Below are positions 124-19,868 of a stretch of 28,131 bases of DNA, piece by piece. The notes under the pieces are model-generated. The model saw nothing but the letters and a program-made list of their open reading frames with translations, made no database searches and had not been told where the DNA came from. Numbering within the stretch: the first letter of the stretch is position 1; each line of letters opens with the position of its first letter. Source of the DNA: an uncultured Verrucomicrobiota bacterium. Its GTDB lineage: Bacteria > Verrucomicrobiota > Kiritimatiellia > CAIKKV01 > CAITUY01. The translations under genes were made by a program, and so were the position numbers. Location: assembly GCA_964609375.1 (NCBI GenBank), contig CAZSSA010000026.1, positions 1 through 28,131 on the forward strand, given 5' to 3'.

Positions 124-1143
124 TTAATGGTGGTCGAAGATGGAGTCGGCCAGACGGGTCCCCGCTTCGGTGCCGATGCCGCCGGTGAAGGCGCCTGTGG
201 CGGCGCCGATGGTGGCGCTCAGGACGCCCTTCAGTTTGTTGCCCCAACTGTTCTTGCGTTGTTCAAGCGCCTCGGTTTCCGTGGAGGCGAGTTTATCCGC
301 CTGGCGCTTGATGGCCTCGGCTTCGACTTGAGCGGCGGCGGTCTTCTTGGAGGCGAAATCCCGTTCGGCGGCATCCCGCTCCGAAGCGACCTGCTGCATG
401 CCGGCTTGGGCCTCATCGACGGCACGCTGGCGGCGGTCCTGATGGGATTGCGAAAAGGCGTCAAGCGCTGCCGGTGTCTCTGTGGGTTCGGCTGTGAATG
501 AGCCTGTCTCCGCTTCGGCATCGCGGAGTGAGTTGAGGCGGGAGGGTGTTGGTGGAACGGATTGGGCCGGTGTGGCGGCTACCATTTTTGAATGGCGGCC
601 AAGCCAGCCTGCCAGCGGGGGAGCGTTGGTGTTTTTAGCGGAGACGTCCAGCCATGTCTGGATTTCGCCCAACAAGGAGGCGCCGGCCTCCATATCGGTT
701 TTCAGCCATCCATCGGTGACCATGCGGTGAAATTCGCCGTAGGTGGTCGGGAGCGGACTGGTCAGGCCGGCCTCTCTTGCCAGATTTCTAAGATAAGCAA
801 TATCACGGGCCTGTTCTGCGGTGGTATAGGTGGCCACGAAGGACTGGAAGCGCCCGCGGGCCGATTCTCCGAACTGCTGTTCCAGAGCGGTGCGTAGCCG
901 CTTGACCAGGTCGCCTGTCCATTGGGAGGCGGCTTCGCCCACCTGGGGGCGGAGCGCGGGTGGAGCCTCGGCGGCGAGGCCGGCGGCCTGGGTAGGAATC
1001 TGCTGACTCAACACATAGCGGAAATAGGAGGAAACGAGGATCTGGTTATCCTGCACACTGGCGGCGAAGCACGTGTGAGATCCAGGGCCAGTGAGCAGAC
1101 CCATAGCCAGGGCGATGCTTGGCATAACCGTTGCGAATTTCAT
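124..1143 (-). CDS. secreted hypothetical protein with an N-terminal signal peptide, C-terminal coiled coil and glycine-zipper tail; last gene of the five-gene operon
   Basis: 339-aa ORF. The signal-like N-terminus is MKFATVMPSIALAMGLLTG. A charged Ala/Glu/Gln-rich helical segment is followed by GAATGAFTGGIGTEAG (GxxxG repeats). The ATG at 1143 overlaps the stop of the upstream gene (ATGA at 1140-1143). No family was recognised. Confidence 0.55.
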   Translation of the reverse strand: MKFATVMPSIALAMGLLTGPGSHTCFAASVQDNQILVSSYFRYVLSQQIPTQAAGLAAEAPPALRPQVGEAASQWTGDLVKRLRTALEQQFGESARGRFQSFVATYTTAEQARDIAYLRNLAREAGLTSPLPTTYGEFHRMVTDGWLKTDMEAGASLLGEIQTWLDVSAKNTNAPPLAGWLGRHSKMVAATPAQSVPPTPSRLNSLRDAEAETGSFTAEPTETPAALDAFSQSHQDRRQRAVDEAQAGMQQVASERDAAERDFASKKTAAAQVEAEAIKRQADKLASTETEALEQRKNSWGNKLKGVLSATIGAATGAFTGGIGTEAGTRLADSIFDHH

Positions 1144-1985
1144 TGGGGTTTCTCCACGATTGTAACCTTGAGGTTGATTTTCCCGGGGGTAATTTCCAGA
1201 ACTTGCATCTTGAGCCCATCGGGGGGATTCAGGACGAGTTTTTCTGAGAGTTCTTCGGCGGAAATCAGTGATTCCAGGTTAAACAGAGCCAGGCCGGCTG
1301 AGTATTGTTTCTGCGTGGAGGTCTGGATGGACTCGGACATCCCGCGCAGGCGGTCGCGAATGGCTTTGAGTTTCCAGAGCTGATCCACGCCGCCGATGGT
1401 CAATTCCACTGGAACCGCCTTGCCGGCGGCTGACGGGGCGGTCTTTTCCGTCCACGCCTTGAGCATGGAAGGAATTAGGACGGCGAGGCATTTTTGTCCA
1501 CAGGCCTTCAAGGCTTTGGAACTGCCGGCGACGTCGTCGAGGCCGACGATGGAGGCGTCCTCGGAGGAGGCGGCGATGGTGGCCGAGTTGTCGGTGCGGA
1601 CGGCACGGAGGGTGGTGACGGCCTGATAGGTTCGGAGATTGCTGTCGCCGATGCGGCGCGCGGAGGGTTTGGCGACGGCCTCGCCGATGATAATGACGTC
1701 AGCGCCGAATTGCTGACCGAGGGCGGAGGCGCCGCGGTTGTCCCCGGCGTTGCGGAGGGATTGCTGGGTTTTTTGAAGGTTGGACTTGATCATATCCTGA
1801 TCAACGACATTGACCTGTTGATCCAGGAGCAGGCGGGTGGCCAGCGCCTCCACTTCGGCGGTGGGGATGGTGCCGAGGCTTTTTTCGTCGATCAGGAGCA
1901 TGACCTTGGGTGTGTCGGCCATGGTGGTGCCAGCCAGAAGAGAGAGGCTGGCCAAGAAGCGATAAAAGGTTTGTCGTGATGTCAT
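1140..1985 (-). CDS. periplasmic protein with a CsgG/TolB-N/LPP20-like fold (inference)
   Basis: 281 aa with signal peptide MTSRQTFYRFLASLSLLAGTTMA. The segment VMLLIDEKSLGTIPTAEVEALATRLLLDQQVNVVDQDMIKSNLQ...GADVIIIGEAVAKP...RTYQAVTTLRAVRTDNSATIAASS matches the repeat pattern of the CsgG/LPP20/TolB-N/FlgT superfamily. ATGA overlaps occur at both ends (1982-1985 and 1140-1143). Confidence 0.55.
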   Translation of the reverse strand: MTSRQTFYRFLASLSLLAGTTMADTPKVMLLIDEKSLGTIPTAEVEALATRLLLDQQVNVVDQDMIKSNLQKTQQSLRNAGDNRGASALGQQFGADVIIIGEAVAKPSARRIGDSNLRTYQAVTTLRAVRTDNSATIAASSEDASIVGLDDVAGSSKALKACGQKCLAVLIPSMLKAWTEKTAPSAAGKAVPVELTIGGVDQLWKLKAIRDRLRGMSESIQTSTQKQYSAGLALFNLESLISAEELSEKLVLNPPDGLKMQVLEITPGKINLKVTIVEKPQ

Positions 1986-2272
1986 CGTTTTGCCTCCAGT
2001 CGTTTCACTCGTGAGTCGAGTTGATCAAGATCGCGTTCCAGGGTTGCTATTTTCTTTTCGAGATTTTGCAGCCGACGCTCGACGCTGTTCATGGCGGTGG
2101 GGGTTTGTAACGGGCGTCCAAGCCGGGTTTCCAGTTCCCCTGTGCGTTTTTCCAGTTTATCCAGGCGGGGGATGGTGGTGTCGGTGGTGACGGGCTCCAG
2201 TTCCTGGGCGACGACGGGCAGGGTCAGCAGAGCGGCCAGGATGAAGAGAAGCGGTGTTTTTTGTCGTTTCAT
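1982..2272 (-). CDS. small secreted coiled-coil protein
   Basis: 96 aa. Signal peptide MKRQKTPLLFILAALLTLPVVAQE, followed by heptad-like LDKLEKRTGELETRL...LQNLEKKIATLERDLDQLDSRVKRLEAKR. The start overlaps the stop of the giant upstream ORF (TAATG at 2270-2274). The stop overlaps the next gene's start (ATGA). Confidence 0.5.
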   Translation of the reverse strand: MKRQKTPLLFILAALLTLPVVAQELEPVTTDTTIPRLDKLEKRTGELETRLGRPLQTPTAMNSVERRLQNLEKKIATLERDLDQLDSRVKRLEAKR

Positions 2273-5200
2273 TATTGATCTCCTGCGGCGGCAGCCGCCG
2301 CTGCCGCCCGTTCCGAGCAGACTTTACAGACAATGCTACCGGTGGGTTTGTTGGCTTCGGAGCCCTGATACAGGATGGAACCGCAGCCTGTGCAGCGGAT
2401 GCGGATGCAGTTCGGGCATGGGGATGACTGTTGGTCGCGACGTGCATAACCGGTGGCACCGCAGAGGCTGCAGGTGGTGGTGTAACACATGGGGCAGCTT
2501 TCCGGTTCCTGGCCGCGCGGATAATTTTTGGAGTAACTACAGCGGGGGCAGGTCAGGGAAACGCAGTTCGGACATTCGACGCCCTGGCCGGCGATGCCCT
2601 TAAAGGTTTTTCCGCAGCCGGGACATGTGACCATGGGGCCCCCGCCGGCGCCATCCCCGCCATTTCCATCGTCCCCTTTTCCGCTGCCCTTGTTCTTCGA
2701 TGAGCCCCCTGATTTTGTCACCTTGGGCCCCCCGCTGCCTGTACCGCCGGACTTTGGATTTCCGCCGGAGCCGGGGGCCGTGACATTGGCGCTGCCATTG
2801 GCCTTGCCGCCATCGGGAGACGATGATTTATTGTTGTCGAAGATAATCCCGGTTGTCTTGTCGGCGGCGGCGGCTCCGACGGCTTTGCCTGCGGCTGTGG
2901 CCCCGGCGGTCAGTCCTTCGGCGACGGCGTCGCCAACCTTGGTGCCAAGGGATTCCTTTCGGTCACCGGCGGCGACCTGCTTGCTGGTTTGATTTTGTTT
3001 ATCCCCGGCTTCCTGGCCGGCCTGGTCGACTTTGCCCTTGGCGTCGCGGGCTTCCTGGTCGCCGGCGGTGGAGCCTTGGGACACCTGATTATTGGCTTCC
3101 ATGTTACCCATGGCGTCGCGGGTTTTATCTGCGGATTTCTGATTACGGGTGCCGGTCAGCTTGTTGAGGGCGGAACCGTTGGGGTTCTGATTATCACCGT
3201 CCTCGTGACGGGAATCGTCTCCTTTCCCTTCGGCGTCCTTCAGGCGTTTTTTTTCGTTCAGGTTGGAGACCAGATCATGGAGGGGGGCTGAGTTTCCCTT
3301 GGCGAGGGCATCGGCGGCGTGGCGGGCTCCGGCATCGGAGGCGCCACGGGCGCGGAGTTTGTTGTAGATATCCTCGGCATTTCCCTTGGCGATCTTGTCG
3401 GCGTCGGTGGCGTTCTGTTCGTTTTTCTGTTTATCCTTCCAGTTGTCGTAGGCTTCCTTTTTCTGGCCGACGAGTTCATCGACGACGCCCTTTTCGGTGA
3501 GGCCGGCGCCGATTTCCGCTGTGTCCTTGACGGCGTCCTTGACGAAGGTTCCGGCGCGAACCCCGCCGTGAACGATGCCTTTGCCGAGGTCAACGGTGCG
3601 GTCGATGGCGGAGTCGTCACCGGAGACGGTCTCGATTTTTGGTTTCTCGGGAAGCTTGTCGCCCTTTGGGTCGCGGATCCCCTTGGATTTTTGCTCGTTC
3701 AAACGGTCCTCATAGCCCTGGGTGTTACCGGAGGAGTAGTCCTTGGCGAGTTTCCCGGCTTCGGCGGGATCCACGCCCATGCGGCGGAGCTTATTCTCGA
3801 GCTGGGTCTGGTAGGCCTGCTGATTCATTTTGTTGGCCTGATCGGTATCCTTGCTGGCCCCGGCGTAGTCGGAGCCTTTGTTGCGGACATCACCGGTCAT
3901 GCCGTCAAATTGCTGGAGGGCTTTTTTCTTGGCCTCGTCGGCGGGATCGTCGGCCGTGAGGATTTCCTTGATGTCCTGGGCGGTGTTCATGATTTGCATT
4001 CCGGTCATGGCGGTACCGGCAGCGGCCTTGATCTTGGCGCCGCGAGTGGTTGGGGTGGTGCCGGCCTTGGGAGCGCCACCCGGGCCATCGGCATCGGGGG
4101 ACGGGCGGACACCCGGACCATCGGCGTCGGCAGTGGGGCCCTTGTTCAATTTGTCGCGTGTGGTTTTGTTTTGTTCGGCGGTGGCCGCGTTGCCTTCCTT
4201 GACCTTACTGACGCGATCCTCGATGGCCTCGGAGGTGGTTGGCTGGTCGCCGTAGTTGGCTTTTTTCTTGGCATCGGCCCATGCTTTATCGCCTGCATTT
4301 TCGGTTATTTTTGCCTGATCGGCGATCTGCTGGCGAGTTTTTTGGGTTTTAGCCCCCTGTTCGACGCCAGCCTCCTTGATTTTTCCCATTTCGGTGTCGG
4401 CGGTCTTTTGCCAATCCTGTATTTTTTTCTGGCGGACTTCCGGGGTGTCGCCGAGATCCGAGATACCTGCGGTGACGTCATCGCCATAGTTCTTCAGTTT
4501 CTTGGCTTGATCGTAGAATTCCGGATTCTGCTTGGCGACGCCGGTGGCCTCGCCGGCCTTGGTGACGGCTTTGGCCTGATCCTTGATGTTGCCTCGTTTT
4601 TGGCCGTCGAGGTATTTCTTCTCGTGGTCGAGGGTCATGCCCTCGGCATCGGTGATGCCCCCGGCCTTATCGCCGACGGACTTGCGGCCGCCAGCGGTTC
4701 CGACGGCGTCAGGGTCCTGGATCTTGGCCTTGTCGTGCTGGCCCTTGGGGTCGTTTTTCCACATGGTTTCATCGGTGGTTTCGTTGACCACCTTGTGCCC
4801 CTTGTCGACGACCTTATCGCCGCGGTTTTGCCATTCGCCCTTTTTCTTGTCGAAGGCGGCATCGGAGTCGGGGGTCAAGTCGCCGTCGGAACGGACGTCT
4901 TTCTGGGCGCTGCCTGTGCTTTTGACGCCGCTCTTTTTGTCCATGTTGTTGTATTCCGAGACTCGGGGATCCTGAGCGGTGTATTTTTCGCGGACCTGAG
5001 TATGCTTCTGGGTGTATTCCTGTTTAAGTTTCTGGTACTCGGGGCTGTTTTTGTTGATGGAGCCGTCGGGATTCTTCGGGGCTTCCTTGCGGGCACGCTG
5101 GTCGTATGTGTTGCGGAGGTCGTCGAGTTCGGCCTGTTGCTGGTTGCGGAGATTGCCGAGGGTGGAGTTTTCCCCGGGGGTGGTCGAGGGGGCTTCATTC

Positions 5201-5625
5201 CTGCCGCTACTTGAATTCAGGAGGATGGTGCCGCCGATGCCTACAGCGGGATTAAGCGGTTCGTTATTGCTTTCCGGGGGCAGGGAGGAGTTGTTGTCGA
5301 GGCTCCGATTGGAGTCTCGATGAATGGCGGAGCCGGCGTTTTCATCGAGGGGGCGGTCGGTGGCGGAGGGGAGACGGCTGGCTTTATCCAGTGGCCGGTA
5401 GGATTGTTGTTGGATCGGCGAGCCGCTGTTGGCGTCGTTGTCGAGATTCCGGCTGGAGTTTTCATCGAGGGGGCGTGCGGTGGTGGAGGGGAGCCGGCTG
5501 GCTTTATCCAGCGGCTTGTAGGATTGCTGTTTGATTTGTGCGCCTGAGGGCAAGGGTGCGGTCAGGAGTGCCAGGGCGGCGAGGAGGTGGATCGACGGGG
5601 TGTGATGGCGAACAAAGCGTTTCAT
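2272..5625 (-). CDS. giant secreted low-complexity (Lys/Asp/Glu/Gly/Ala/Thr-rich) protein with N-terminal tandem repeats and a C-terminal cluster of eight CxxC zinc-ribbon motifs
   Basis: The ORF is open from 5799, but the likely start is the ATG at 5625. That ATG is preceded by GGAG with a 6-nt spacing, and it gives the signal peptide MKRFVRHHTPSIHLLAALALLTAPLPSGAQ. The protein has two ~40-aa repeats (QQSYKPLDKASRLPST..RPLDEN), then about 900 aa of charged, hydrophobic-poor sequence. The C-terminus reads CPGC..CPNC..CPRC..CPMC..CSLC..CPNC..CTGC..CKVC followed by poly-Ala. It lies 26 bp downstream of the lipoprotein gene. Confidence 0.7.
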   Translation of the reverse strand: MKRFVRHHTPSIHLLAALALLTAPLPSGAQIKQQSYKPLDKASRLPSTTARPLDENSSRNLDNDANSGSPIQQQSYRPLDKASRLPSATDRPLDENAGSAIHRDSNRSLDNNSSLPPESNNEPLNPAVGIGGTILLNSSSGRNEAPSTTPGENSTLGNLRNQQQAELDDLRNTYDQRARKEAPKNPDGSINKNSPEYQKLKQEYTQKHTQVREKYTAQDPRVSEYNNMDKKSGVKSTGSAQKDVRSDGDLTPDSDAAFDKKKGEWQNRGDKVVDKGHKVVNETTDETMWKNDPKGQHDKAKIQDPDAVGTAGGRKSVGDKAGGITDAEGMTLDHEKKYLDGQKRGNIKDQAKAVTKAGEATGVAKQNPEFYDQAKKLKNYGDDVTAGISDLGDTPEVRQKKIQDWQKTADTEMGKIKEAGVEQGAKTQKTRQQIADQAKITENAGDKAWADAKKKANYGDQPTTSEAIEDRVSKVKEGNAATAEQNKTTRDKLNKGPTADADGPGVRPSPDADGPGGAPKAGTTPTTRGAKIKAAAGTAMTGMQIMNTAQDIKEILTADDPADEAKKKALQQFDGMTGDVRNKGSDYAGASKDTDQANKMNQQAYQTQLENKLRRMGVDPAEAGKLAKDYSSGNTQGYEDRLNEQKSKGIRDPKGDKLPEKPKIETVSGDDSAIDRTVDLGKGIVHGGVRAGTFVKDAVKDTAEIGAGLTEKGVVDELVGQKKEAYDNWKDKQKNEQNATDADKIAKGNAEDIYNKLRARGASDAGARHAADALAKGNSAPLHDLVSNLNEKKRLKDAEGKGDDSRHEDGDNQNPNGSALNKLTGTRNQKSADKTRDAMGNMEANNQVSQGSTAGDQEARDAKGKVDQAGQEAGDKQNQTSKQVAAGDRKESLGTKVGDAVAEGLTAGATAAGKAVGAAAADKTTGIIFDNNKSSSPDGGKANGSANVTAPGSGGNPKSGGTGSGGPKVTKSGGSSKNKGSGKGDDGNGGDGAGGGPMVTCPGCGKTFKGIAGQGVECPNCVSLTCPRCSYSKNYPRGQEPESCPMCYTTTCSLCGATGYARRDQQSSPCPNCIRIRCTGCGSILYQGSEANKPTGSIVCKVCSERAAAAAAAAGDQ
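5287..5530. repeat. two ~120-bp tandem direct repeats, imperfect (roughly 85% identical), inside the 5' part of the giant gene
   Basis: The unit ...ttttcatcgagggggcg(g/t)(t/g)cggtgg(c/t)ggaggggag(a/c)cggctggctttatccag(t/c)ggc... appears starting at ~5337 and again at ~5458. It encodes the duplicated peptide QQSY(K/R)PLDKASRLPS(T/A)T(A/D)RPLDEN. Confidence 0.6.
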
Positions 5626-5650: not shown

Positions 5651-7834
5651 TTAACGGCGTATTTCCAGCGGTTCGCTGCGCTGACTTTCGAGACCGTCGA
5701 CATCGATGGATGATATTTGAACGTTGAGTTTCGCGCCCACATTGGTTGCGTGCAGGGCGAATTCCGTTCCATCGGTATTGCCGAGCGAGGCGGCTCCAAG
5801 TCCCAGAACCCCTTTTTTCCATACCCGATACTGTTTGATGTCAGGTTGAGGCGGGGCGTTCCATGACAGCAGCGCCTGATTGTCGTTCCATGTGACTTTC
5901 ATGCCAGTTGGCGGGTGGGGGGCGGGCTTGGTGGCGCCTTGGACGGGGGTTGTCCATTCGCTCTCCAGGCGATCACCATCCAGGGCCTTGAGGCGGTATT
6001 CATAGGTCTTGCCGTCCGCCAGCCCTTCCTGAGTGGTTTCGACGGTCATGTCGCCCGAGGAGTCCACGCGGGCGATTTCATGGAACCGCCAGGCGCCGGT
6101 TTCGCGTCCTTCGACAATGTATTTCCTGATATCGGGTTCGGTGTTGGAGTTCCACTGCAGACGGATTTTGCGTGCGATGCCCCGTCCAACGGAAAGTCCG
6201 GCGGGGGGGCGGGGGGCGGGTTTTGTGGTGACGGTGACTTCCTGGCCGGGGCTTGAGCGGGTGTCGCCGAGATTGATCGCGGTGATTTGATAGCGATACA
6301 GGGTCCCGTCCTTCAGGTTGCCCAGATCGGCGGCATTCCGTACGCCGCCCCGATCCAGCCATGTGGTGCGGTTGCGGTCATGGAGGGTTTCGATTTCCGA
6401 GAAGGAGCCGTTGGCGCCTTCGGCGCGGGAGATGACGTAGCGATCCACTTTTTCATCGGCGGAGGCATTCCAGGAAAGGGGGACTTCGCGGGGGCGGGCG
6501 TCTTCGGCTTTCAGGCCGGAGACCATGGGCGGGGGAGAGCGGGTGGTGGCGGCAACGGCGGGGATGTCATCGCTGACGGCGCCGACTTCGTTCACGGCGC
6601 GGATCCGGTAGTGGTAGGTTTTGCCATCCTTGAGCTTACCCGGCTCGCGGCCGCCATCGGTAAAGGAGGTGGTGGCGGGGCCGCGGACGGACTCCACTTC
6701 GGTAAAGGGGCCTTCGTCCGACTCGGCACGGAGGATAACGTAGCGGATGATGCCGGGATCGGTGCTAGCGGTCCAGTTCAGGGGGACAATGCGAATCCAT
6801 TCACTTTCTGCAGTAAGACCGGCGACCGGGGATGGTGGAGGGGCTGTCATGGTTTCATGGATGACTGTGTAATCGCTTTGCAGGCCGGATTCGGCGATGG
6901 CGGCCATGCGATAGTAATAGGTGCTGCTGTCCTTGAGGGGGAGTGTGGAGCCTTTATCTATGAATGTGCGGCGGGAAGGGGCGACTTCGGCGATGGAGAT
7001 GAAGGTGCCGTTGCGGTTATCGGCGCGCTCGATACGATAACGCGAGGCGGTGGCATCGGCCGGGGCGTTCCAAGAAATCGTGGTCTGACGTAAGCCCATA
7101 TCCGACACCTTGAACCCGGACGGGGGAGGAGGGGGGAGGAGGCGCGGGGCTGGAGACGAAACGGCGGCCGACGGTGCGGGCGCCGGAAGGGCAGGAGAGG
7201 AGAGGGGTGATGGGCTGGCGGATACGGGCGCCCGCAGCGGGGAGGCCTTGATGCATTTCCATTTCTGATACAAGCCGGCGGCCATACTGTGGACCACGAT
7301 GCGTGCCTGTTCCGGGAGGGTGACATCGCTGTTATCCGCCCGCTTGGCGAGATCCACGCTGCACAGGACGCGGCCGCTTTTGCAGTCGATCATGCGCACG
7401 GAGACGCCCACGACGGGGATGGCGTTGCCGCGGCGGGCGATGGTGTTGTATTCATCCACGGTTCCGACCAGCACGGCGTCGGCACCCAGCATATTGCCCA
7501 CTTCGGCGGCCTTGCTTTCCGACAAGCCGGCGAGGGCGAGTTCGGATTCGCCCAGAACGTTGGCCATCTGACTGCGTTCGACGAGGTGGAACCGGTTCAT
7601 GTGCAGGAGTTCGGTGACGAACATATCGGAAACGGAGGTGCCGATGAGTTCAGTGGGCGCCTTGAACGGCATGATGGCCACTTTTTCCACGGGTGAGCCG
7701 GTGGGCGCCACATAAACGTTTGTTTTTGGATCGACGTTTTTAAAGTAGGACTCAAGGTTGTCGGTGGCGCAACCTGCCAGGTAAACAGCCGAGGCGATGC
7801 CGGTGGACAGTAAGAAAGCCCTATAAAACCGCAT
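5651..7834 (-). CDS. outer-membrane lipoprotein with an N-terminal CsgG-like domain followed by a Pro-rich linker and five fibronectin type III (FN3) repeats; first gene of the operon
   Basis: 727 aa. Lipobox LAGC (MRFYRAFLLSTGIASAVYLAGCATDN). The segment VAIMPFKAPTELIGTSVSDMFVTELLHMNRFHLVERSQMANVLGESELALAGLSESKAAEVGNMLGADAVLVGTVDEY matches the CsgG family signature closely. Five ~95-aa repeats of the type xxSWNAxxDxxxxRYxIxRAE..G.F..I, ending in Y.YR..A, are FN3-like. A good RBS (AAGGAAGGAG) precedes the ATG at 7834. Confidence 0.75.
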   Translation of the reverse strand: MRFYRAFLLSTGIASAVYLAGCATDNLESYFKNVDPKTNVYVAPTGSPVEKVAIMPFKAPTELIGTSVSDMFVTELLHMNRFHLVERSQMANVLGESELALAGLSESKAAEVGNMLGADAVLVGTVDEYNTIARRGNAIPVVGVSVRMIDCKSGRVLCSVDLAKRADNSDVTLPEQARIVVHSMAAGLYQKWKCIKASPLRAPVSASPSPLSSPALPAPAPSAAVSSPAPRLLPPPPPSGFKVSDMGLRQTTISWNAPADATASRYRIERADNRNGTFISIAEVAPSRRTFIDKGSTLPLKDSSTYYYRMAAIAESGLQSDYTVIHETMTAPPPSPVAGLTAESEWIRIVPLNWTASTDPGIIRYVILRAESDEGPFTEVESVRGPATTSFTDGGREPGKLKDGKTYHYRIRAVNEVGAVSDDIPAVAATTRSPPPMVSGLKAEDARPREVPLSWNASADEKVDRYVISRAEGANGSFSEIETLHDRNRTTWLDRGGVRNAADLGNLKDGTLYRYQITAINLGDTRSSPGQEVTVTTKPAPRPPAGLSVGRGIARKIRLQWNSNTEPDIRKYIVEGRETGAWRFHEIARVDSSGDMTVETTQEGLADGKTYEYRLKALDGDRLESEWTTPVQGATKPAPHPPTGMKVTWNDNQALLSWNAPPQPDIKQYRVWKKGVLGLGAASLGNTDGTEFALHATNVGAKLNVQISSIDVDGLESQRSEPLEIRR

Positions 7835-8020
7835 GAGTCAAACTCCTTCCTTTTCCTGTGGGAGCCCCCTGCGGGTGATAGCAGAGGCCGCCAAAATTAT
7901 GGGTTAAGATAGCATGAGTCGGTGTGTGGCGGTAGCGGAAAAGGACGGATTCCGTAGGGGTATCTGCCGCCGGGAGGGAGGGGGGGTAGGGTTCAGGGTT
8001 CAGGGTTCAGGTTTTGTGGG

Positions 8021-8794
8021 CTACGGATAATCCTGGCGGGTGGGGCGGATAACGATGTCGCCGACATGGACGTGGGGCGGGCGGGTGACGATAAAGTGGA
8101 TGGCGTTAGCCACGTCCTGACCTTCCAGTAAGGGGCCGTATTTATCTTTGAAATTCTGGACCATGTCGTCGCTATAGCCTGCCGCCGCTTGAAATCCACT
8201 TAGGACAAAACCAGGTTCCACCAGTGAAACACGGATTCCCTTGGGCCCCATTTCGCGGCGCAGGGCCTCTGCCAGGGCGTGGACGGCGAACTTGGTGGCG
8301 CCATAGACGGCACTGAAGGGGGAGATATGCCGCCCCACGACGGAACCGATGATGACAATATCGGCCGCTGTTTTCGGATAGGCGTGTTGCTGATCCACCA
8401 TTTTCTGTGCGGCTTTTTGCAGCAAGGCGAGGGTGGCGGTGACGTTGGTTTGCAGTACCTCGTTGAGTTGGGAGAGATCGGAGTCCTTGACGGACCCGCC
8501 AAGGCCCCGGCCTGCGTTGGCCACGACGATGTCAGCCGGCTTGCCGAAATGCTCGATGGCCAAGGCAAAGAGTTGTTCCAGAACGGCGTTGTCCGCCGTG
8601 TTGCCGGCGACGCCGCGGAAAGCGGGCCCCAGTTCCTTTTCAAGGGCGGCAAGTTTGGCGGCATTGCGGCCATTGCCGATAACGCCAAAGCCAGAAGAGA
8701 TGAAGGTACGGGCGGTGGCTTCGCCGATGCCGGATGTGGCACCCGTGATGATGGCAATGCGGGAGTAAGGGGTAGTCATAGGGGGTTGATCCAT
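8021..8794 (-). CDS. short-chain dehydrogenase/reductase (SDR) family oxidoreductase
   Basis: Carries the TGATSGIG NAD(P)-binding motif, NAG, and the catalytic Y..K pair (YGATKFAV). It aligns along its length with classical SDRs. The alternative start at 8779 (MTTPYS) forms an ATGA overlap with the vapC stop at 8776-8779, so 8779 may be the true start. Confidence 0.9.
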   Translation of the reverse strand: MDQPPMTTPYSRIAIITGATSGIGEATARTFISSGFGVIGNGRNAAKLAALEKELGPAFRGVAGNTADNAVLEQLFALAIEHFGKPADIVVANAGRGLGGSVKDSDLSQLNEVLQTNVTATLALLQKAAQKMVDQQHAYPKTAADIVIIGSVVGRHISPFSAVYGATKFAVHALAEALRREMGPKGIRVSLVEPGFVLSGFQAAAGYSDDMVQNFKDKYGPLLEGQDVANAIHFIVTRPPHVHVGDIVIRPTRQDYP

Positions 8795-9201
8795 CGTACT
8801 GTGGGGAAACGCGAGAAATCAGAATCCGTGGAGGCGAGTTCGCAACCGTTCTCCACGGCGAGTGATGCAAGATGGGCGTCGGTGACAAGATTGGCGACAG
8901 CTTGCCCCTCGCGAAGCATCTTTTGAAACAGGGTCCAGTGTTTCTCTGTCGGATGAATGATTCTGGTACAGGGCTGGTCAATCCAACTTTGCACACGGGT
9001 GAGTGCTTGATCAAGGGACAGAGGGTGTTCAAAGACGCGTGGGTTGGTGCTGATGCGGATGAAGGCGCTGAGGACCGTCCAGCAGAGACACACGGGTGAA
9101 CTGCCGGATAATTTGGCATCCCACCAGGCGACGGCCTTGGAATGGAGCGGGCTGAGTTGATCTTCTGCGTATAGAAGGATATTGGCGTCCACAAGGATCA
9201 T
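8776..9201 (-). CDS. vapC: PIN-domain ribonuclease toxin VapC
   Basis: 141 aa. MILVDANILLYA...TDAHLASLAVENGCELASTDSDFSRF carries the conserved PIN acidic residues (D5, E, D, D). The start overlaps the upstream antitoxin stop (ATGA at 9198-9201). Confidence 0.85.
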   Translation of the reverse strand: MILVDANILLYAEDQLSPLHSKAVAWWDAKLSGSSPVCLCWTVLSAFIRISTNPRVFEHPLSLDQALTRVQSWIDQPCTRIIHPTEKHWTLFQKMLREGQAVANLVTDAHLASLAVENGCELASTDSDFSRFPTVRWINPL

Positions 9202-9443
9202 GGCTGGTTCTCTCCTTCAACTTGCGCGATCAATTCCTGGATATTGTCGAGATTCCGTCCGGCTTTCAGGCCAAGTTTACGGGGTTGGGTGTGATAGGGG
9301 CGGGTTATGGCGGGTGCCTCAACCGACTGCAATCCTGCCCGAAGTGCTTCATTGACCACTAAGCGGAACGGGGCGTGAAGTTGCGCGGCGACGGATCTGG
9401 CCCTATCCAAAACATCGTTATCTAAGGTAAGCGTTGTTCTCAT
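9198..9443 (-). CDS. vapB: VapB-family type II antitoxin
   Basis: 81 aa. The N-terminus MRTTLTLDNDVLDRARSVAAQ matches the MRTTLxLDDDLL antitoxin family (RHH/COG4423-like) that pairs with VapC. Its 4-bp overlap with vapC supports the pairing. Confidence 0.7.
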   Translation of the reverse strand: MRTTLTLDNDVLDRARSVAAQLHAPFRLVVNEALRAGLQSVEAPAITRPYHTQPRKLGLKAGRNLDNIQELIAQVEGENQP

Positions 9444-11956: not shown

Positions 11957-13156
11957 TTATTCGTTTCGCAAGGCTTCGGCGGGGGCGATGCGGGCGGCGG
12001 TTTTGGCGGGCAGATAACTGAACGCCAATCCGAGAAATAATCCGGCGACGGAGGGCATGAGGAGCACCATGGGACTGGTGGCGACGGGGATTGGAAGTTG
12101 TCCGCCGATGAGCGTAAGAATGATGACAGCGACGACGGTCCCGAGAAGGGTGGCGGAGAGGGTAAGCAGCAGCGATTCCATCAGGAACAGAAGACTGATA
12201 TCGAGCGTGGAAGCGCCCAGGGCGCGGCGGAGCCCGATTTCGGGGATGCGGGTCTGGATGTTGGCGAGCATGAGGCTCCCGAGCGTGATGCCTCCCATGA
12301 ACAGGCACAGCATGACAATGGCGCCGCCGGCAAGCATGATTAATCGGCGCAGGCTCAACAGGCGCGCTACCAGACTTTGGGGCGTTACCCATGAAACCGG
12401 TTCGGCGGTTTGCTCCGGATCGGCAAGCAGGTTGCGGGCGGACCGGAGTGTGGCGTCAAAGGTCCCGGCTTGTCCGCTGCGGATAAAGATGGCGTCGAGC
12501 CGTTCATCGGGAGGAATGGAATCGGATCGCCAGTAAGGCGGGACCGTCCACGGGATGATGATCAGGCGTTCTCCGGGGGCCAGGGCTTTCGATCCTGTTC
12601 CCGACGTGCTGCCTTCGGCGGTGATAATGCCAATGATACGGAAGACGACAGGGCCAAGGGTTATGGTATTGCCGAGGCCGAGGTGGAGTTCCCGGGCGAG
12701 TGTTTCTGAAAGTACCGCCACGGAGGAATGGTTGCGGATATCGGCGGCATCCAGCGGTCGACCGAGGCGGAGGGGCCAGGGGCGAACAGCAAAGCAGTTT
12801 TCATCGGCACCCAGGATGGTGGCGATGTGGCGGGAGGAATCCATTGGATAGGATTCCGAACGAATACCGGCGACGGTTGCGTCGGAAAGCGTTTGGCGCA
12901 GGAGGACGGCATGGCGCCGCGTGAGGGGTGCGGGGGATGGGGTCGTGGCTCCGGATGAGTCTTGAAGGATCGTGAAGACGTTTACCCCCAGCTCGGCGAT
13001 GGCGGTTTCCGTCTGGCGTTGCAACCCGACGACGAGGGATAGGAGCGTGGTGAGTGCCAGCATGCCCATGGCAATACCCGCGAATGGAAGGACGACCCGG
13101 ACAGGGTGGCGCCGGGCGCCTTCGCAGACATCCTGAAGCATGGGACGCCAGCGCAT
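11957..13156 (-). CDS. ABC transporter permease of the FtsX/MacB/DevC family
   Basis: 399 aa. It has an N-terminal TM, a large periplasmic domain, and three C-terminal TMs ending in the FtsX-like signature (...GLAFSYLPAKTAARIAPAEALRNE). Its start overlaps the ATPase stop. Confidence 0.85.
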   Translation of the reverse strand: MRWRPMLQDVCEGARRHPVRVVLPFAGIAMGMLALTTLLSLVVGLQRQTETAIAELGVNVFTILQDSSGATTPSPAPLTRRHAVLLRQTLSDATVAGIRSESYPMDSSRHIATILGADENCFAVRPWPLRLGRPLDAADIRNHSSVAVLSETLARELHLGLGNTITLGPVVFRIIGIITAEGSTSGTGSKALAPGERLIIIPWTVPPYWRSDSIPPDERLDAIFIRSGQAGTFDATLRSARNLLADPEQTAEPVSWVTPQSLVARLLSLRRLIMLAGGAIVMLCLFMGGITLGSLMLANIQTRIPEIGLRRALGASTLDISLLFLMESLLLTLSATLLGTVVAVIILTLIGGQLPIPVATSPMVLLMPSVAGLFLGLAFSYLPAKTAARIAPAEALRNE

Positions 13157-13848
13157 CAGGATGTCCTCCGTTCAGTCAGTGACCCGGCGTGGCATTCGAT
13201 GTGGCGGGTGGTGTGTTCCGCGAGGGCGGGGTTATGGGTGGCCATCATGATGGTGATGCCGGACTGATGGAGCCGCAGGAAATGATCCATGATGGCGGAT
13301 CCCGTGGCGGGATCGAGATTGCCGGTGGGTTCATCCACAAGCAGGAGGTCGGGAGGGAGGGCGATGGCGCGGGCGATGGCGACACGTTGCATTTCGCCGC
13401 CGGAGAGGAGCCGGGCCGGTTGGTCGGCGTGGGGCCCCATGTCCACGTGGGCAAGGGCGAGGCGGGCAAGGCGGAGCACCTCGTCGGGGGGGGTATCCAG
13501 ATAGCGGAACCGGAAGACGACATTTTCGAGAACCGTCCGGTGCGGGAGGAGGCAGAAGCGCTGGAAGACCATTCCGACCCGGCGCTTGCGCAATTCAATC
13601 CGTGCCGGTTCATCGACGGCCTGGACATCGTTGCCGGCAAGCAAGAGGCGGCCGGACGACGGTTGATCGAGCAAGGCGGCGAGGTTGAGGAGGGTGGTCT
13701 TGCCGGAGCCGGAGGGTCCCGTGATGGAGACGAATTCGCCGGCGTGGACGCGGAGGTTTATATTGCGGAGGACGGTCACCGGGCCGCGCGGCGAGGGGAA
13801 CGCCTTGGAGATATTCTCCATATGAAGGATCGGGTCCGGCGGGCTCAT
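13156..13848 (-). CDS. ABC transporter ATP-binding protein (MacB/LolD-like)
   Basis: Carries Walker A (GPSGSGKTT), the ABC signature (LSGGEMQRVAIARA) and Walker B (LLLVDEPTGNLD). Confidence 0.9.
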   Translation of the reverse strand: MSPPDPILHMENISKAFPSPRGPVTVLRNINLRVHAGEFVSITGPSGSGKTTLLNLAALLDQPSSGRLLLAGNDVQAVDEPARIELRKRRVGMVFQRFCLLPHRTVLENVVFRFRYLDTPPDEVLRLARLALAHVDMGPHADQPARLLSGGEMQRVAIARAIALPPDLLLVDEPTGNLDPATGSAIMDHFLRLHQSGITIMMATHNPALAEHTTRHIECHAGSLTERRTS

Positions 13849-15062
13849 GGGAGCAGGATCCGTTCGCCCGGTTTCACGCCGCCAAGGATCTCGAAGGAGG
13901 TTTCGTTGCCGATGCCAAGATCAAGACGGCGGGATTCGGTGCGACGAAACGTGCGTACCTTGCAGGAGGGGATCCCGCTCTCCCATTGCACGGCCTGGCG
14001 TGGCAGCAACACGGCGTTGGTGCGGGTGTGGGATTGGATGTTGATGGCGACGGACATACCGGGGCGGAGCCGGGAATCGGCCTGACCGATGCGGAGGGTG
14101 ACGAGAAAATATTTCTGCCACGACGGATAGCCGGGGCGGGACTGGGCGGTGGCGCTGACGTTTTCCACGGCACCCTGAAGGCGGAGGGAGGGATAAGCCA
14201 GCGGGGTGATGATGGCGGGGGCGGAGGGGGGAACGCGGGCGAGATCGGCTTCGGGGATAAAGGTTTGTGCGATGAACTCCCGGAGATCAGGGAGGCAGAG
14301 GAGGGGCTGGTTGGGGAAGACCGAGTCGCCGACGCGGATGGTGCGGTATTCCGTGCCGACGGGGACGGGCAGGTGAACGGCCAGCCCGGCGGCCGGGGCG
14401 CGGATGACGGCGTTGGAGAGTTGGCGGCAGGCGGCGTCGTATTGCCGCTGGGCGGCGTTACAGGCGGACCGGGCGCGGGCGAGGCGTGCGGGATGCAGAT
14501 GTTCCAGGGTCAGGGTGTGCTGCGATTCCAATTGATCGGCCTTGGCCTTGGAGACGGCGACACGGGACTCCTGTTGTTCCAGTTCGCGGCGGGCAAGGAG
14601 ATGGCGGTCCACAAGTTCCCTGGTATCGGCCAGTGCCTGTTGTTCGGAAACGGCGAGCGCGCGGAGTTCGCCGAGGCGCGCCTCGATATCGGCGCGCTCA
14701 ATCGGGATGTCCGCTTTTTCGAGGGCGTCCAGTTCGGCGCGGGAACGTGCAAGGTCATTGTTGAGTTTGACGAGATCGTTTTCGATATCCGAACTATCGA
14801 ACCGGAGAAGGACGTCGCCTTCGCGCACCTCGGCGCCATTGGGGATGATTTCGACAACGGTGGCCCGGCCCTGGAAGCGGGAGAAAATGGTTTCGGTGCG
14901 GCGTGCGTCCATGGTGCCGGTGCAGGGAGTCCAGACCTCAAGGGTGCCGCGGGTGACGGTGGCCTCACGGGGCCCCGAGGCTGATGCCGACGGGTTGGGT
15001 CGGCATGAGGTTAGCGGCAATGTGAACGCGAGGAGCAGGGTGGTCAGGAGTGCAGGGTTCAT
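13845..15062 (-). CDS. HlyD-family membrane fusion / periplasmic adaptor protein (DevB/MacA-like)
   Basis: 405 aa. It has an N-terminal signal/anchor and a long coiled-coil hairpin (LNNDLARSRAELDALEKADIPIERADIEARLGELRALAVSEQQ...). A C-terminal beta-barrel/MP domain follows. ATGA-type overlaps occur with both neighbouring genes. Confidence 0.85.
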   Translation of the reverse strand: MNPALLTTLLLAFTLPLTSCRPNPSASASGPREATVTRGTLEVWTPCTGTMDARRTETIFSRFQGRATVVEIIPNGAEVREGDVLLRFDSSDIENDLVKLNNDLARSRAELDALEKADIPIERADIEARLGELRALAVSEQQALADTRELVDRHLLARRELEQQESRVAVSKAKADQLESQHTLTLEHLHPARLARARSACNAAQRQYDAACRQLSNAVIRAPAAGLAVHLPVPVGTEYRTIRVGDSVFPNQPLLCLPDLREFIAQTFIPEADLARVPPSAPAIITPLAYPSLRLQGAVENVSATAQSRPGYPSWQKYFLVTLRIGQADSRLRPGMSVAINIQSHTRTNAVLLPRQAVQWESGIPSCKVRTFRRTESRRLDLGIGNETSFEILGGVKPGERILLP

Positions 15063-16504
15063 GGCATTGGTTCCATGGCGTTGGGTTTGAGATCGTTCGG
15101 AGAATCCGTAAGGGTGCCCATGAGCCGGAGCAGGGTATAGCCGGAAACGCAGACGGAGGCGCGGGCGGCGAGGAGAACCGATTCGGCTTCCACGTAGGCG
15201 GTTTCGGCGTCGGTCACGGAAAAGCTATCGCCGCGCCCCATCTCGAAAAGGCGGCGGGCGAGTTCCGAGCGGGCCTCGGCGGCGGCATAATTGCGGCCGG
15301 CGATGGAGAGTTCGCTGCGGGACTGACGGTAGGCGGATACGGCTTGTTGAACTTCGCGGGCGATGGAGAGGGCGCGGATGCCGATGGATTCCCGGGCGGC
15401 CTGGACGTCCACCTCGGAGATGTCGACCAGCGGTTTATTCCGTTTGCGGTTCAGATCGATTTGTCCGGCGAGTCCGACGGTCCAGAGGTTGTGATCCAGG
15501 TCCCTCGAGTCCTTGAAGGTGACGGCTTGCCCGTATTGTTCGTTGCCGGCGACGAGATTGACATCCGGTTGAAGGCGACGGCGGGCCAGTTTGGCGCCGC
15601 GGATGGCCGCGTGATAGTCCTGGATGAGCTGAGCGTAATCGAGGCGGTTGCTCAGGGCGGTCTGGACGGCGATATCCATGGGAGGGACGTCGAGATCCGG
15701 TAGCGGGGAGGGGGAGGGGGAGCAGTCGGTTTCGGGGGGGAGGCCGAGGAGTTCGGCGAGATTACGACGGGTGACGAACAGGGATTCGCGGTGATTTTCC
15801 AGGCGTGTTTCGGCCTGCCCCCGTTGGAGTTCCACACGGAGGGTATCCACGCGGGAGGCGCGGCCCTGTTGTTCCCGGGCACGGGTGAGTTCCAGAAGGC
15901 GGTTGGCGCGGGCGAACATGGCGGCGTCGCACGACACCTGTTTTTCGAGGCGGACGATGGATTCGAACTGGCGGGCGACGTCGACGATGAGGTCGGCCTT
16001 TTGAAGTTCCCAGTGGCGGCGTTCGGCGCGGTGTTGTTCGCCGGCGGCGGTCAGGGGTTCCTCATGGACGAGTCGTCCGAACCGCCGGAAGAGGGGTTGG
16101 CGCACATCCACTTTGACGGCTGAGCGCCAGGGTTCGTCCACGAAGGAGGGATAGCGGAGGACGCTGGCATCGACACCGATTTCGGTGCCCCAGACGAGTT
16201 TGCGTTCGGCGCGCATGCCATAGCGCCATTCGGTGTCGCTGTCGGTGGTGTTCACGGCGCCATGCGGGATGACGCCGGTGGCGAATTCCTCGCGGGCGGC
16301 CTTGACGCCGAGTTCAGTGCGGGTGACCGCAAGGGCGCCGCGGGCGAGTTGGCGATTATGATTGAGGGCGGCGTTAATGGCGGCGTCGAGGGTGAGTGGA
16401 GTTGAATTGGTGGGAGCGGCGGCGGCCAGACAGGTAGAGAGAATAAGTGCGGTGGCGAGGAGGCGGGTGACCCTGTGGATTCTGAATGGTTGTATGGCGG
16501 GCAT
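15059..16504 (-). CDS. TolC-like outer membrane efflux factor
   Basis: Two tandem OEP repeats with the typical LTLDAAINAALNHNRQLA start and coiled-coil helices. The ATG at 16504 is the likely start. It yields the signal peptide MPAIQPFRIHRVTRLLATALILSTCLAAAAP and is preceded by GAGGAA. The track ORF begins at an upstream TTG at 16543. Confidence 0.8.
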   Translation of the reverse strand: MPAIQPFRIHRVTRLLATALILSTCLAAAAPTNSTPLTLDAAINAALNHNRQLARGALAVTRTELGVKAAREEFATGVIPHGAVNTTDSDTEWRYGMRAERKLVWGTEIGVDASVLRYPSFVDEPWRSAVKVDVRQPLFRRFGRLVHEEPLTAAGEQHRAERRHWELQKADLIVDVARQFESIVRLEKQVSCDAAMFARANRLLELTRAREQQGRASRVDTLRVELQRGQAETRLENHRESLFVTRRNLAELLGLPPETDCSPSPSPLPDLDVPPMDIAVQTALSNRLDYAQLIQDYHAAIRGAKLARRRLQPDVNLVAGNEQYGQAVTFKDSRDLDHNLWTVGLAGQIDLNRKRNKPLVDISEVDVQAARESIGIRALSIAREVQQAVSAYRQSRSELSIAGRNYAAAEARSELARRLFEMGRGDSFSVTDAETAYVEAESVLLAARASVCVSGYTLLRLMGTLTDSPNDLKPNAMEPMP

Positions 16505-16564
16505 TTCCTCATGGCGGGTGTTGACCCGCACTCCAACTCTCAAATGACAGATTTCAGGTCCGAT

Positions 16565-17374: not shown

Positions 17375-17391
17375 GGTGTTCCTTCCGCAGG

Positions 17392-18930: not shown

Positions 18931-19138
18931 ACTACACAAGGTGGGTGTGTGGGGGAAAGAGCGAAAATCGGGCAACGGCGATTCAGGCACTGGGGAGGGG
19001 CCGACCTAGTTCTGTCCCTGCGGCCTGGCGATTCGAGTCGCCGGAGCCAGCGTGACGATTGGGTAGTGTTACTTGTTGATTCCGCTGACCCTAGCGCCCG
19101 CTCACCGCTCACATAACGGATAAAAGGATATTGCCATT

Positions 19139-19435: not shown

Positions 19436-19868
19436 ACTAAGGGAATGTGTGGAGGCGGAGGAGGAAAATATTCGGTATGCGTTAAGGCAACTGCCGAATG
19501 TTGATCGACTAAGCACATTGTCTGACTTGGAACTCGCTGGTACGGCGGCGTTATTGCACAGCATCTATAACGGCCTTGAAAATGTATTGAAGCAGGTGAT
19601 TCAGGGAGTGGGTGGCGATGTTCCGACAGGGTCAACTTGGCATCGGGATTTGTTGCTTCAAGTACAGGCTTGCCACATTTTGGCACAGGTGACGGTGGAT
19701 GCCCTTCGGCCATTTATGGCGTTTCGGCATTTTTTCAGTCATGCCTATGTATTGGATTTGGACCCCGCCCGTATGGAGTTATTGGTTGGTACGGCTAAGC
19801 AGGTTGTTGATCAGGTCCTTATTGAGGTATTGGCGCATATCAACAGCGCAAAAGGTTCTGGAACCTGA
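19428..19868 (+). CDS. HepT-like HEPN-domain toxin
   Basis: 146 aa, all-helical, carrying the RHFFSHAY (Rx4HxY) HEPN catalytic motif near the C-terminal third. It sits directly downstream of, and overlapping, the MNT gene. Confidence 0.75.
   Translation: MAELRECVEAEEENIRYALRQLPNVDRLSTLSDLELAGTAALLHSIYNGLENVLKQVIQGVGGDVPTGSTWHRDLLLQVQACHILAQVTVDALRPFMAFRHFFSHAYVLDLDPARMELLVGTAKQVVDQVLIEVLAHINSAKGSGT

Follow-up and report, generated by a model that had tools for sequence, protein, structure and literature searches.

Organization of the locus

The window analysed here, a 28,131-nucleotide stretch of DNA from an uncultured Verrucomicrobiota bacterium, carries on its minus strand a gene for a predicted lipoprotein in which a short alpha/beta domain is fused to a Pro-rich linker and five predicted FN3 domains (Table 1). 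A preliminary description of this DNA had picked out this open reading frame, and it is present as described. More than 120 homologous protein clusters share the same architecture, with 3 to 10 FN3 copies (usually six), and the median identity of the N-terminal domain (N-domain) among homologues is 59%; this is therefore a conserved gene and not a chance open reading frame.

The protein begins with MRFYRAFLLSTGIASAVYLAG directly followed by a Cys, a classical lipobox, and most homologues keep an xGC lipobox. The product is thus predicted to be a lipoprotein, as first described, and with Ala as its +2 residue (Cys22 being +1) it would be of the outer-membrane type by a sorting rule that is that of E. 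coli and may not apply in PVC bacteria.

The fused gene belongs to a conserved cassette that encodes exported proteins, and it is probably the cassette start, because a 186-nt intergenic region separates it from the SDR gene that precedes it. The first partner is a giant protein with a Gly/Ala-rich segment and eight CxxC motifs in its last ~120 residues; its likely start is the ATG at 5625, with GGAG 6 nt upstream and 25 nt past the stop of the fused gene. The cassette partners were additionally scanned against NCBIfam, and the giant protein matched no Pfam or NCBIfam family. At most related loci a giant open reading frame comes next after the fused gene; these proteins evolve fast, and C-terminal CxxC clusters recur among them.

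About half of the homologues of the third partner, p281, are lipoproteins. The N-terminal half of p281 weakly resembles the N-domain lipoprotein fold (BLAST E-values of 1e-4 to 1e-3 against paralogue N-domains; hhalign probability 12%), and LpoB matches occur in 3 of 22 members. These weak likenesses hint at a possible second PelC-like domain and do not amount to a finding. The fourth, p339, combines a helical bundle with a disordered linker, one long helix of 91 residues and a Gly-rich end. Its C-terminal module (long helix plus Gly-rich end, residues 228-339) is common to the giant proteins of other loci; the window giant did not reach E 1e-3 against the corresponding HMM and is tied to the other giants through BLAST only. 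A stand-alone copy of the N-domain, ~195 aa long, is an optional member of the cassette at related loci, as at positions 15948-16538 of locus L001.

The conserved neighbours encode proteins other than sugar enzymes and include no gene for a PelB-like or other barrel. Two candidate associations were discarded: a nearby MacB/ABC/HlyD/OEP pump has a place near the cassette in just two close relatives and at locus L005, and exopolysaccharide genes are neighbours at locus L001 only.

Table 1. Features of the fused lipoprotein gene and its cassette in the window.
Feature	Coordinates	Strand	Residues or size	Description and basis
Fused lipoprotein gene	5651..7834	(-)	727 aa	PelC/CsgG-superfamily N-domain, Pro-rich linker and 5 predicted FN3 domains; ORF list, Pfam, homologues
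Stop codon of fused gene	5651-5653	(-)		
Ribosome-binding site	7843..7850	(-)		GGAAGGAG, Shine-Dalgarno-like, 8 nt 5' of ATG; sequence inspection
Lipoprotein signal peptide	7769..7834	(-)	1-22	Predicted; lipobox L-A-G-C, Cys22; translation
N-terminal alpha/beta domain	7253..7768	(-)	23-194	PelC-like short form of the CsgG/PelC/LpoB/TolB-N lipoprotein fold
Long beta-hairpin	7385..7477	(-)	120-150	Basic tip ARRGN; DSSP of model, hhalign to CsgG, PelC alignment
Pro/Ser/Ala-rich linker	7133..7252	(-)	195-234, 40 aa	Translation; pLDDT 64-77 where linker begins
FN3 domain 1 (predicted)	6848..7132	(-)	235-329	Pfam fn3, repeat alignment
FN3 domain 2 (predicted)	6530..6847	(-)	330-435	Pfam fn3, PDB chain matches, repeat alignment
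FN3 domain 3 (predicted)	6221..6529	(-)	436-538	Pfam fn3, PDB chain matches, repeat alignment
FN3 domain 4 (predicted)	5927..6220	(-)	539-636	Pfam fn3, PDB chain matches, repeat alignment
FN3 domain 5 (predicted)	5654..5926	(-)	637-727	Most divergent copy; Pfam fn3, repeat alignment
Giant protein, partner 1	2272..5625	(-)	1117 aa	Exported; K/D/E/Q/G-rich low-complexity
Small coiled-coil protein, partner 2	1982..2272	(-)	96 aa	Exported; start codon overlaps giant stop by 1 nt
p281, partner 3	1140..1985	(-)	281 aa	Exported; start overlaps preceding stop by 4 nt
p339, partner 4	124..1143	(-)	339 aa	Exported, all-alpha; start overlaps preceding stop by 4 nt

The linker and the FN3 array

The Pro-rich linker and the five FN3 modules of the preliminary description were both recovered. 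Pfam fn3 (PF00041) matches the fused protein in five separate stretches (E 1.6e-27), an HMM built from its own five repeats finds five copies, and PDB chains of the titin and RPTP FN3 arrays match it with E-values of 3e-9 to 1e-3. The repeats are ~90-100 aa long, and their core Trp and Tyr-x-Tyr/Arg positions are conserved. By these profile and repeat analyses, the C-terminal part of the protein is predicted to consist of five FN3 domains. The C-terminal FN3 domains carry conserved motifs specific to the fused-lipoprotein family.

The N-domain is a PelC-like lipoprotein domain

The N-domain is only ~173 aa long. Pfam CsgG (PF03783) matches residues 64-173 of the fused protein (E 2e-16; 60.4 bits, cut-off 20.8), in a partial match that covers only profile positions 36-159 of 210. 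CsgG is the top-scoring Pfam family, above its cut-off at 60-66 bits, in all 22 members tested. PF05643, the Pfam family of PelC and GNA1162, scores 22.2 bits against the window N-domain, below its gathering threshold of 25.9, and matches 22/22 family members at E<=0.01 (best 2.4e-7). LpoB (PF13036) remains below its cut-off of 22.3 at 18.9-22.2 bits. In the opposite direction, a profile of the N-domain family retrieves PelC and GNA1162 chains with E-values of 2e-6 to 8e-5, whereas CsgG obtains no significant match (E ~0.9). A profile search of this domain thus returns the CsgG label from Pfam, as first assigned, while the family's own profile favours PelC/GNA1162.

By fold and family profile combined, the closest solved relatives of the N-domain are PelC and GNA1162, and as in lipoproteins of that kind, the domain is a compact alpha/beta fold without membrane-spanning segments. 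A long beta-hairpin at residues 120-150 lies where CsgG has TM1 and PelC its D-loop (Asp119). The consensus of its tip in the family is A-x-R-G-x, with an invariant Gly, and the window protein has A-R-R-G-N. An N-terminal Y-F...N-V-Y-V segment is also conserved and specific to the fused-lipoprotein family. Within the CsgG/PelC/PqiC/LpoB/TolB-N lipoprotein fold, the N-domain is a PelC-like member that lacks a pore.

Comparison with the CsgG channel

CsgG, the curli secretion channel (PDB 4UV3, 6LQH; Pfam PF03783), served as a comparison system, and its defining features and those of PelC were taken from PMC4594475, PMC7304575, PMC13631591 and PMC12141448. In CsgG, two beta-hairpins (four strands) per subunit build a 36-stranded barrel (PMC4594475, PMC13631591); PelC and GNA1162 are periplasmic rings without membrane-spanning segments (PMC13631591).

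Mature E. coli CsgG has 262 aa, in agreement with the compact size of around 260 aa given for the family in the preliminary description, against 173 aa for the N-domain. The TM1 hairpin has 37 residues in the N-domain and 51 in E. coli CsgG (-14), and the segment from strand 5 to the C-helix, which forms TM2, has 19 residues against 40 (-21), so that the N-domain has no second hairpin. The CsgG constriction loop (ETGQFKPYPASNFSTAV) comprises 17 residues, with stacked rings of Phe56, Asn55 and Tyr51, whereas the corresponding beta1-alpha1 loop, KAPT(ELIG), has 4-8 residues without an aromatic or Asn motif (no Tyr, Asn or Phe). The C-terminal ~30 residues of CsgG are absent from the N-domain.

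These differences bear on whether the protein could be a channel. The consistent Pfam ranking favours one, as do the name 'CsgG/HfaB family protein' that NCBI gives to relatives, the long hairpin still present at the TM1 position and the adjoining giant, unfolded-looking exported protein, which could be a substrate. Against it stand the partial Pfam match, the cut-back hairpin and missing TM2 segment, the reduced constriction loop, the charged hairpin tip and the insignificant family-profile match to CsgG. PelC, moreover, has the same short hairpin and does not span the membrane, and Pfam found no curli families (csgA/B/E/F-like) among the window ORFs scanned (nearly all >=150 aa). The 'CsgG-like secretion-channel domain' proposed earlier therefore holds as far as Pfam's filing of the domain goes, and its secretion-channel part does not, with both hairpins cut back and the constriction loop reduced. 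The term 'channel-forming lipoprotein' is likewise not supported; the nearest relatives, PelC and GNA1162, have no membrane-spanning segments.

Comparison with PelC and other ring lipoproteins

PelC assembles as a dodecameric ring at a porin's periplasmic rim; the oligomeric states of PelC, PqiC and CsgG are 12-mer, 8-mer and 9-mer, respectively. PelC (Pel exopolysaccharide export; PDB 5T0Z, 5T10/5T11, 9H80) and GNA1162 (4HRV), with Pfam PF05643, are the closest known proteins. PelC has no C-terminal extension, whereas the protein described here adds the Pro-rich linker and the five predicted FN3 domains. In P. aeruginosa PelC, a conserved acidic residue of the D-loop, Asp119, contacts PelB (PMC12141448); it is replaced here by Arg/Lys-Gly. 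No pel-like genes, including one for the PelB TPR-porin, were found in the window or at loci L001-L006.

PqiC, XCC0632 and PA3214 are octameric outer-membrane lipoprotein toroids of MCE systems. Sequence similarity between these toroids and the present protein is undetectable and MCE/PqiA genes are absent; a helix docked in a ring serves here as an analogy only. LpoB, the TolB N-domain, FlgT (H-ring) and Chlamydia CT253 differ in domain order and partners; in LpoB the linker lies between the lipid anchor and the domain, whereas here it follows the domain. No cell-wall, Tol-Pal or flagellar genes lie near the fused gene.

Distribution of the fusion

The fusion is neither unique nor rare; it recurs as a family among PVC MAGs. 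Each of the 77 genome loci fetched has a title that marks it as metagenome-assembled or uncultured, and nearly all belong to the PVC group; the family and its cassette have so far been seen only in MAGs of uncultured Kiritimatiellia and Lentisphaerae. None of the 80 genome hits came from a cultivable Kiritimatiellia or Lentisphaeria strain with the cassette. The search for homologous fusions in this group, suggested in the preliminary description, was thus productive. Several paralogous loci can occur in one genome, such as L017/L018/L033 in one MAG and L015/L020/L046 in another. JGI names relatives 'fibronectin type 3 domain-containing protein/TolB-like protein'. A literature search for CsgG-like or PelC-like proteins with FN3 domains or in PVC taxa returned nothing relevant, in keeping with the initial remark that the architecture was not recognised as characterised.

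Proposed role and alternatives

The best explanation, which we consider about as likely to be right as wrong, is that the protein acts as a PelC/PqiC-like oligomeric collar at the periplasmic face of the outer membrane, bearing an FN3 stalk. A collar or ring under the outer membrane is likelier than a channel because the domain is of the short PelC type, without the pore-forming parts. Like PelC, PqiC and CsgG, the N-domain would oligomerise into a ring. Its acyl chains would keep this ring on the periplasmic side of the outer membrane, and the short, basic tip of the hairpin (ARRGN) would face the membrane or the pore. From there the Pro-rich linker and the FN3 domains would reach down into the periplasm, forming a stalk or palisade that is roughly 20 nm long if extended. 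The fused protein would not itself be a channel, and the ring would work with the other exported proteins of the cassette. In the most concrete version, the collar would dock the long C-terminal helix and Gly-rich module of the giant family and p339, analogous to the PqiC toroid that receives the PqiB helical needle, and the FN3 array would form a cage or spacer in the gap that separates the membrane from the peptidoglycan or inner membrane.

Several observations count against the collar: Pfam still ranks the N-domain highest as CsgG, the PelC D-loop Asp is replaced, no barrel gene is a conserved neighbour, the window giant falls below the threshold of the p339 C-terminal HMM, and the likeness of p281 to the N-domain is weak.

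Alternatively, the protein could be a surface-exposed lipoprotein adhesin or stalk, with the N-domain as anchor or plug and the FN3 array projecting outside to bind polymers or surfaces. Bacterial FN3 arrays are mostly extracellular, and the variable FN3 copy number (3 to 10), the several paralogous loci per genome and the fast-evolving giant partners would fit such a role. However, the solved relatives of the N-domain all work on the periplasmic side of the outer membrane, the fused gene has no linked machinery for exporting lipoproteins to the surface, and the family-specific motifs in the C-terminal FN3 domains point to a fixed protein partner. The stand-alone N-domain forms also lack any adhesive part, yet belong to the same cassette. 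This role is possible and, on balance, unlikely.

Less likely still is a genuine PelC-type accessory of exopolysaccharide export, in which a ring round a porin guides the polysaccharide and the FN3 domains bind glycan. PelC is indeed the best structural and profile match, the L001 cassette is flanked by Wzz/GNVR and Poly_export genes and by a GT2, and about 9 kb upstream in the window there are a GT2 and an FHA-TPR gene. Such sugar-gene neighbours are not conserved across loci, however; the conserved neighbours are of the other kind described above. A PelB-like TPR-porin and pelA/D/E/F/G were not found in the window, and the residue replaced by basic ones in the D-loop, Asp119, is functionally important in PelC.

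A monomeric role in the manner of LpoB or TolB-N, as a regulator or as a tether from the outer membrane to peptidoglycan enzymes with the FN3 array as a ruler, is improbable: the domain order (lipid, domain, linker) is reversed relative to LpoB, PBP or Tol-Pal genes are absent from the cassette, and PelC scores much higher. A true CsgG-type nonameric beta-barrel secretion channel bearing an FN3 stalk was rejected on the E. coli CsgG alignment and fold searches (missing strands, constriction loop); the missing strands largely refute it, and it is very improbable.

A broader reading concerns the cassette as a whole. The fused lipoprotein and its partners may constitute an undescribed envelope apparatus, known so far from PVC-group MAGs only, in which PelC/PqiC-like lipoprotein rings with a palisade of FN3 stalks would anchor, cage or export giant unfolded proteins at the outer membrane; we hold this reading to be speculative and rather doubtful. 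Its parts would be the disordered giant with its zinc-ribbon-like C-terminal CxxC clusters, the coiled coil, the stand-alone PelC-like lipoprotein, p281 and p339.

Significance

The analysis corrects an easy over-reading of a family label, since the Pfam 'CsgG' match reflects here a shared lipoprotein core and not a pore. Each of the ring-forming outer-membrane lipoproteins with the same fold (CsgG, PelC, PqiC, LptE) marks a different transport system across the envelope. The fused-lipoprotein family is a further branch of this fold, equipped with a predicted FN3 array of periplasm length and tied to giant exported proteins outside known families. If the reading as an undescribed apparatus is true, it would represent a new use of the ring fold, and possibly a new route of protein secretion or anchoring. 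Should the cassette turn out to function as a unit, a phylum whose envelope is almost unstudied would gain a further envelope structure or export route.

The fused lipoprotein belongs to a family

The fused protein begins with a lipoprotein signal (MRFYRAFLLSTGIASAVYLAG-C; lipobox LAGC, Cys22, +2 Ala), followed by an N-terminal domain (N-domain), a Pro-rich linker and an FN3 array (see table). Pfam assigns CsgG (PF03783) to residues 64-173 (E 2e-16, 60.4 bits) and fn3 (PF00041) to five stretches (E 1.6e-27), with weaker matches to GNA1162-like, LpoB and FlgO over the N-domain stretch. Among PDB chains, the FN3 arrays of titin and receptor tyrosine phosphatase match the protein at E 3e-9 and weaker. 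The features named in the preliminary description, namely a lipoprotein, a CsgG-like domain, the Pro-rich linker and five FN3 domains, are therefore all present. This is a genuine, uncharacterised fusion, but its N-domain is no channel and the architecture is that of a family.

Features of the fused gene, its cassette and its neighbourhood
Feature	Position	Strand	Remarks
Fused gene	5651..7834	-	ORF of 727 residues
Ribosome-binding site GGAAGGAG	8 nt upstream of fused-gene ATG		186-nt intergenic gap precedes
N-domain	residues 23-194		
Pro-rich linker	residues 195-234		
FN3 domains 1-5	residues 235-329, 330-435, 436-538, 539-636, 637-727		
Giant protein, 1117 aa	5625..2272	-	signal peptide; GGAG before ATG; 25-nt gap after fused gene
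Coiled-coil protein, 96 aa	2272..1982	-	downstream of giant gene
p281, 281 aa	1985..1140	-	downstream of coiled-coil gene
p339, 339 aa	1143..124	-	last cassette gene
PIN-domain toxin (141 aa) and overlapping 81-aa upstream ORF	8776..9443	-	between SDR and flotillin genes
MacB-type tripartite efflux set	11957..16543	-	MacB_PCD/FtsX permease, ABC ATPase, HlyD-like adaptor, OEP/TolC
GT2 glycosyltransferase and adjoining 532-aa protein (FHA/YscD-like N-terminus, TPR repeats)	16565..18990	-	

A word-indexed search found 171 proteins, and almost all of the 120 matches listed carry CsgG plus fn3 (560-1215 aa); the architecture is not a one-off. Their names are all automatic ('CsgG/HfaB family protein' or 'fibronectin type 3 domain-containing protein/TolB-like protein'). 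Among the listed relatives, 84 have six FN3 copies, 32 have five, 4 have three or four and 1 has ten; the window protein is thus a five-copy form in a family where six copies prevail. Conservation is highest in the N-domain, with a median identity of 59% versus 37-44% for the FN3 domains. Restricted to the N-domain, an all-against-all search retrieved 56 representatives (clustered at 50% identity) at E<=1e-30, 153 at E<=1e-10 and 2553 at E<=1e-3.

Scanning a single genome for each species yielded 89 loci, 77 of them distinct and fetched. All 77 are titled as metagenome-assembled or uncultured genomes, with no cultured strain among them, and are labelled Kiritimatiellia, Lentisphaerae or Verrucomicrobiota, bar a few odd bins. 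The N-domain lies in 24 stand-alone ORFs of <=260 aa, most of them also lipoproteins, in 8 of 261-600 aa, 31 of 600-900 aa and 6 of >900 aa. Some stand-alone copies (loci L070, L078, L080, L083) place CC(C) followed by 5-8 consecutive Gly between the lipobox Cys and the domain (e.g. LAGCCCGGGGGGGSS).

Many MAGs hold two or three N-domain loci, the fused gene or cassette recurring as second or third paralogous copies within one genome. MAGs CAITZM01 and JAPLSZ01 each have three such loci, and at L003 a 691-aa CsgG+fn3 paralogue (19861..21936, 29% identical) lies 7 kb downstream. In a Lake Mendota Kiritimatiellia MAG (L008), the N-domain is 100% identical to that of the window while neighbouring genes are 62-87% identical, indicating much stronger constraint on the N-domain than on its surroundings.

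The N-domain is PelC-like and lacks the CsgG pore

An AlphaFold2 model of residues 1-215 (58 sequences, mean pLDDT 91) shows a beta-beta-alpha-beta unit, three helices, a long hairpin (120-134, 137-150), a third strand and a C-terminal helix. In Foldseek, PelC and GNA1162 take the first 20 ranks (E 4e-10 to 5e-8; TM 0.68-0.81 on target), and the first CsgG appears at rank 21 (TM 0.32-0.47). The family profile likewise finds GNA1162 and PelC among PDB sequences at E 2e-6 to 8e-5, but CsgG only at E ~0.9. Since both comparisons rank PelC first and CsgG clearly behind, the N-domain is assigned to the short PelC type, which has no pore, within the lipoprotein superfamily of CsgG, PqiC, LptE, LpoB and the TolB N-domain. 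This superfamily has been described, and the PelC and PqiC rings lack the membrane segments of CsgG (PMC13631591).

In CsgG, each subunit contributes four strands to a 36-stranded barrel pore in which rings of Phe, Asn and Tyr are stacked (PMC4594475; PMC7304575; PMC13631591). A profile built from the N-domains of 22 family members was aligned by hhalign to E. coli CsgG (mature form 262 aa, with Tyr51, Asn55 and Phe56 in the expected positions), and the pore-making parts proved to be missing from the N-domain. The TM1-forming hairpin has 37 residues versus 51 in CsgG, and the segment between the following strand and the C-terminal helix, which holds TM2 in CsgG, has 19 versus 40. The beta1-alpha1 loop, seat of the Phe/Asn/Tyr constriction in CsgG, is cut back to 4-8 residues (KAPT/ELIG) versus 17 (ETGQFKPYPASNFSTAV). 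The Pfam match spans only profile positions 36-159 of 210. Together, the partial match, the shortened TM1/TM2 segments and the reduced loop largely exclude CsgG channel identity, and the "secretion-channel domain" proposed initially is not supported.

The fused gene heads a cassette of exported proteins

Four further genes follow 3' on the same strand, with overlaps of 1 or 4 nt at the last three junctions. Each of the four products carries an N-terminal signal sequence, and none (0/4) matches a Pfam or NCBIfam family. In unrelated contigs the same order recurs: fused gene, giant ORF (800-1700 aa), small coiled coil, then a stand-alone ~195-aa N-domain lipoprotein followed by p281 and p339 homologues. 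Stand-alone and fused N-domains are 55-57% identical. Cassettes exist with the fused form only (the window, L052, L074, L076), the stand-alone form only (L019, L027, L035, L041, L060) or both (L001, L005, L048, L079, L082); what all versions share is thus the N-domain, to which an FN3 array may or may not be added.

The giant proteins evolve fast and are polar, with few hydrophobic residues, and CxxC clusters terminate most of them. The window giant is extremely polar and of low complexity, with two IKQQSYKPLDKASRLPS... repeat copies near its N-terminus, a hydrophobic stretch rich in Gly and Ala, a G/S/K linker and eight zinc-ribbon-like CxxC in its last ~120 residues. Such clusters are unusual on a signal-peptide protein. 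C-terminal CxxC clusters recur in giant neighbours at other loci. A G/V/L/A-rich 631-aa ORF (3319..5214, + strand) is most likely a spurious product of high-GC, low-complexity sequence, since it lies wholly antisense within the giant gene and lacks support.

About half of the p281 homologues are lipoproteins, and p281 resembles the N-domain only weakly. p339 has no informative relative in the PDB; its C-terminal ~110 residues form a long helix with a Gly-rich GAFTGGIG end. This module also occurs inside 16 giant proteins, 150-350 residues ahead of their C-termini (L027, L046, L051, L058, L060, L061, L064, L066, L069, L075, L076, and further L079, L081, L082).

Other neighbours, namely the window SDR, VapBC pair, flotillin, MacB-type pump, GT2 and FHA-TPR protein, and the Wzz and Poly_export genes of L001, are not conserved across loci. 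The PIN-domain and 81-aa ORFs look like a VapBC-type toxin-antitoxin pair. A set similar to the MacB-type one also adjoins the cassette in L005 and in the close relatives L008 and L009, and not elsewhere.

Proposed arrangement and alternatives

For the fused gene, a lipoprotein with a PelC-like fold devoid of pore elements, an FN3 array and a conserved exported-protein cassette are established. Its solved relatives form rings (PelC 12-mer, PqiC 8-mer, CsgG 9-mer; PMC12141448; PMC13631591; PMC10897342). [quoted passage not shown] An FN3 domain is ~3.5-4 nm long, so the linker together with the five-domain FN3 array would reach about 20 nm, on the scale of a periplasm's depth. An n-mer ring would thus have n such stalks suspended from it.

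Alternatively, the protein may be a surface-exposed FN3 adhesin. A PelC-type polysaccharide export accessory is a rival suggested by the fold, but the window revealed neither a porin gene nor pel genes, and the D-loop has the opposite charge. In PelC, the conserved Asp119 of this loop contacts PelB (PMC12141448); the loop is the tip of the hairpin equivalent to the long hairpin of the N-domain, where the tip is instead basic (ARRGN; family consensus A-x-R-G, invariant Gly). An LpoB/TolB-like tether would require a different domain order, and its partner genes are missing. A true CsgG-type channel is largely excluded by the missing strands.

Returning to the periplasmic ring, PqiC receives the helical needle of PqiB (PMC10897342), and by the same analogy the ring may dock the long-helix module common to p339 and the giant proteins. 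The fused lipoprotein is a variant of a known lipoprotein kind.
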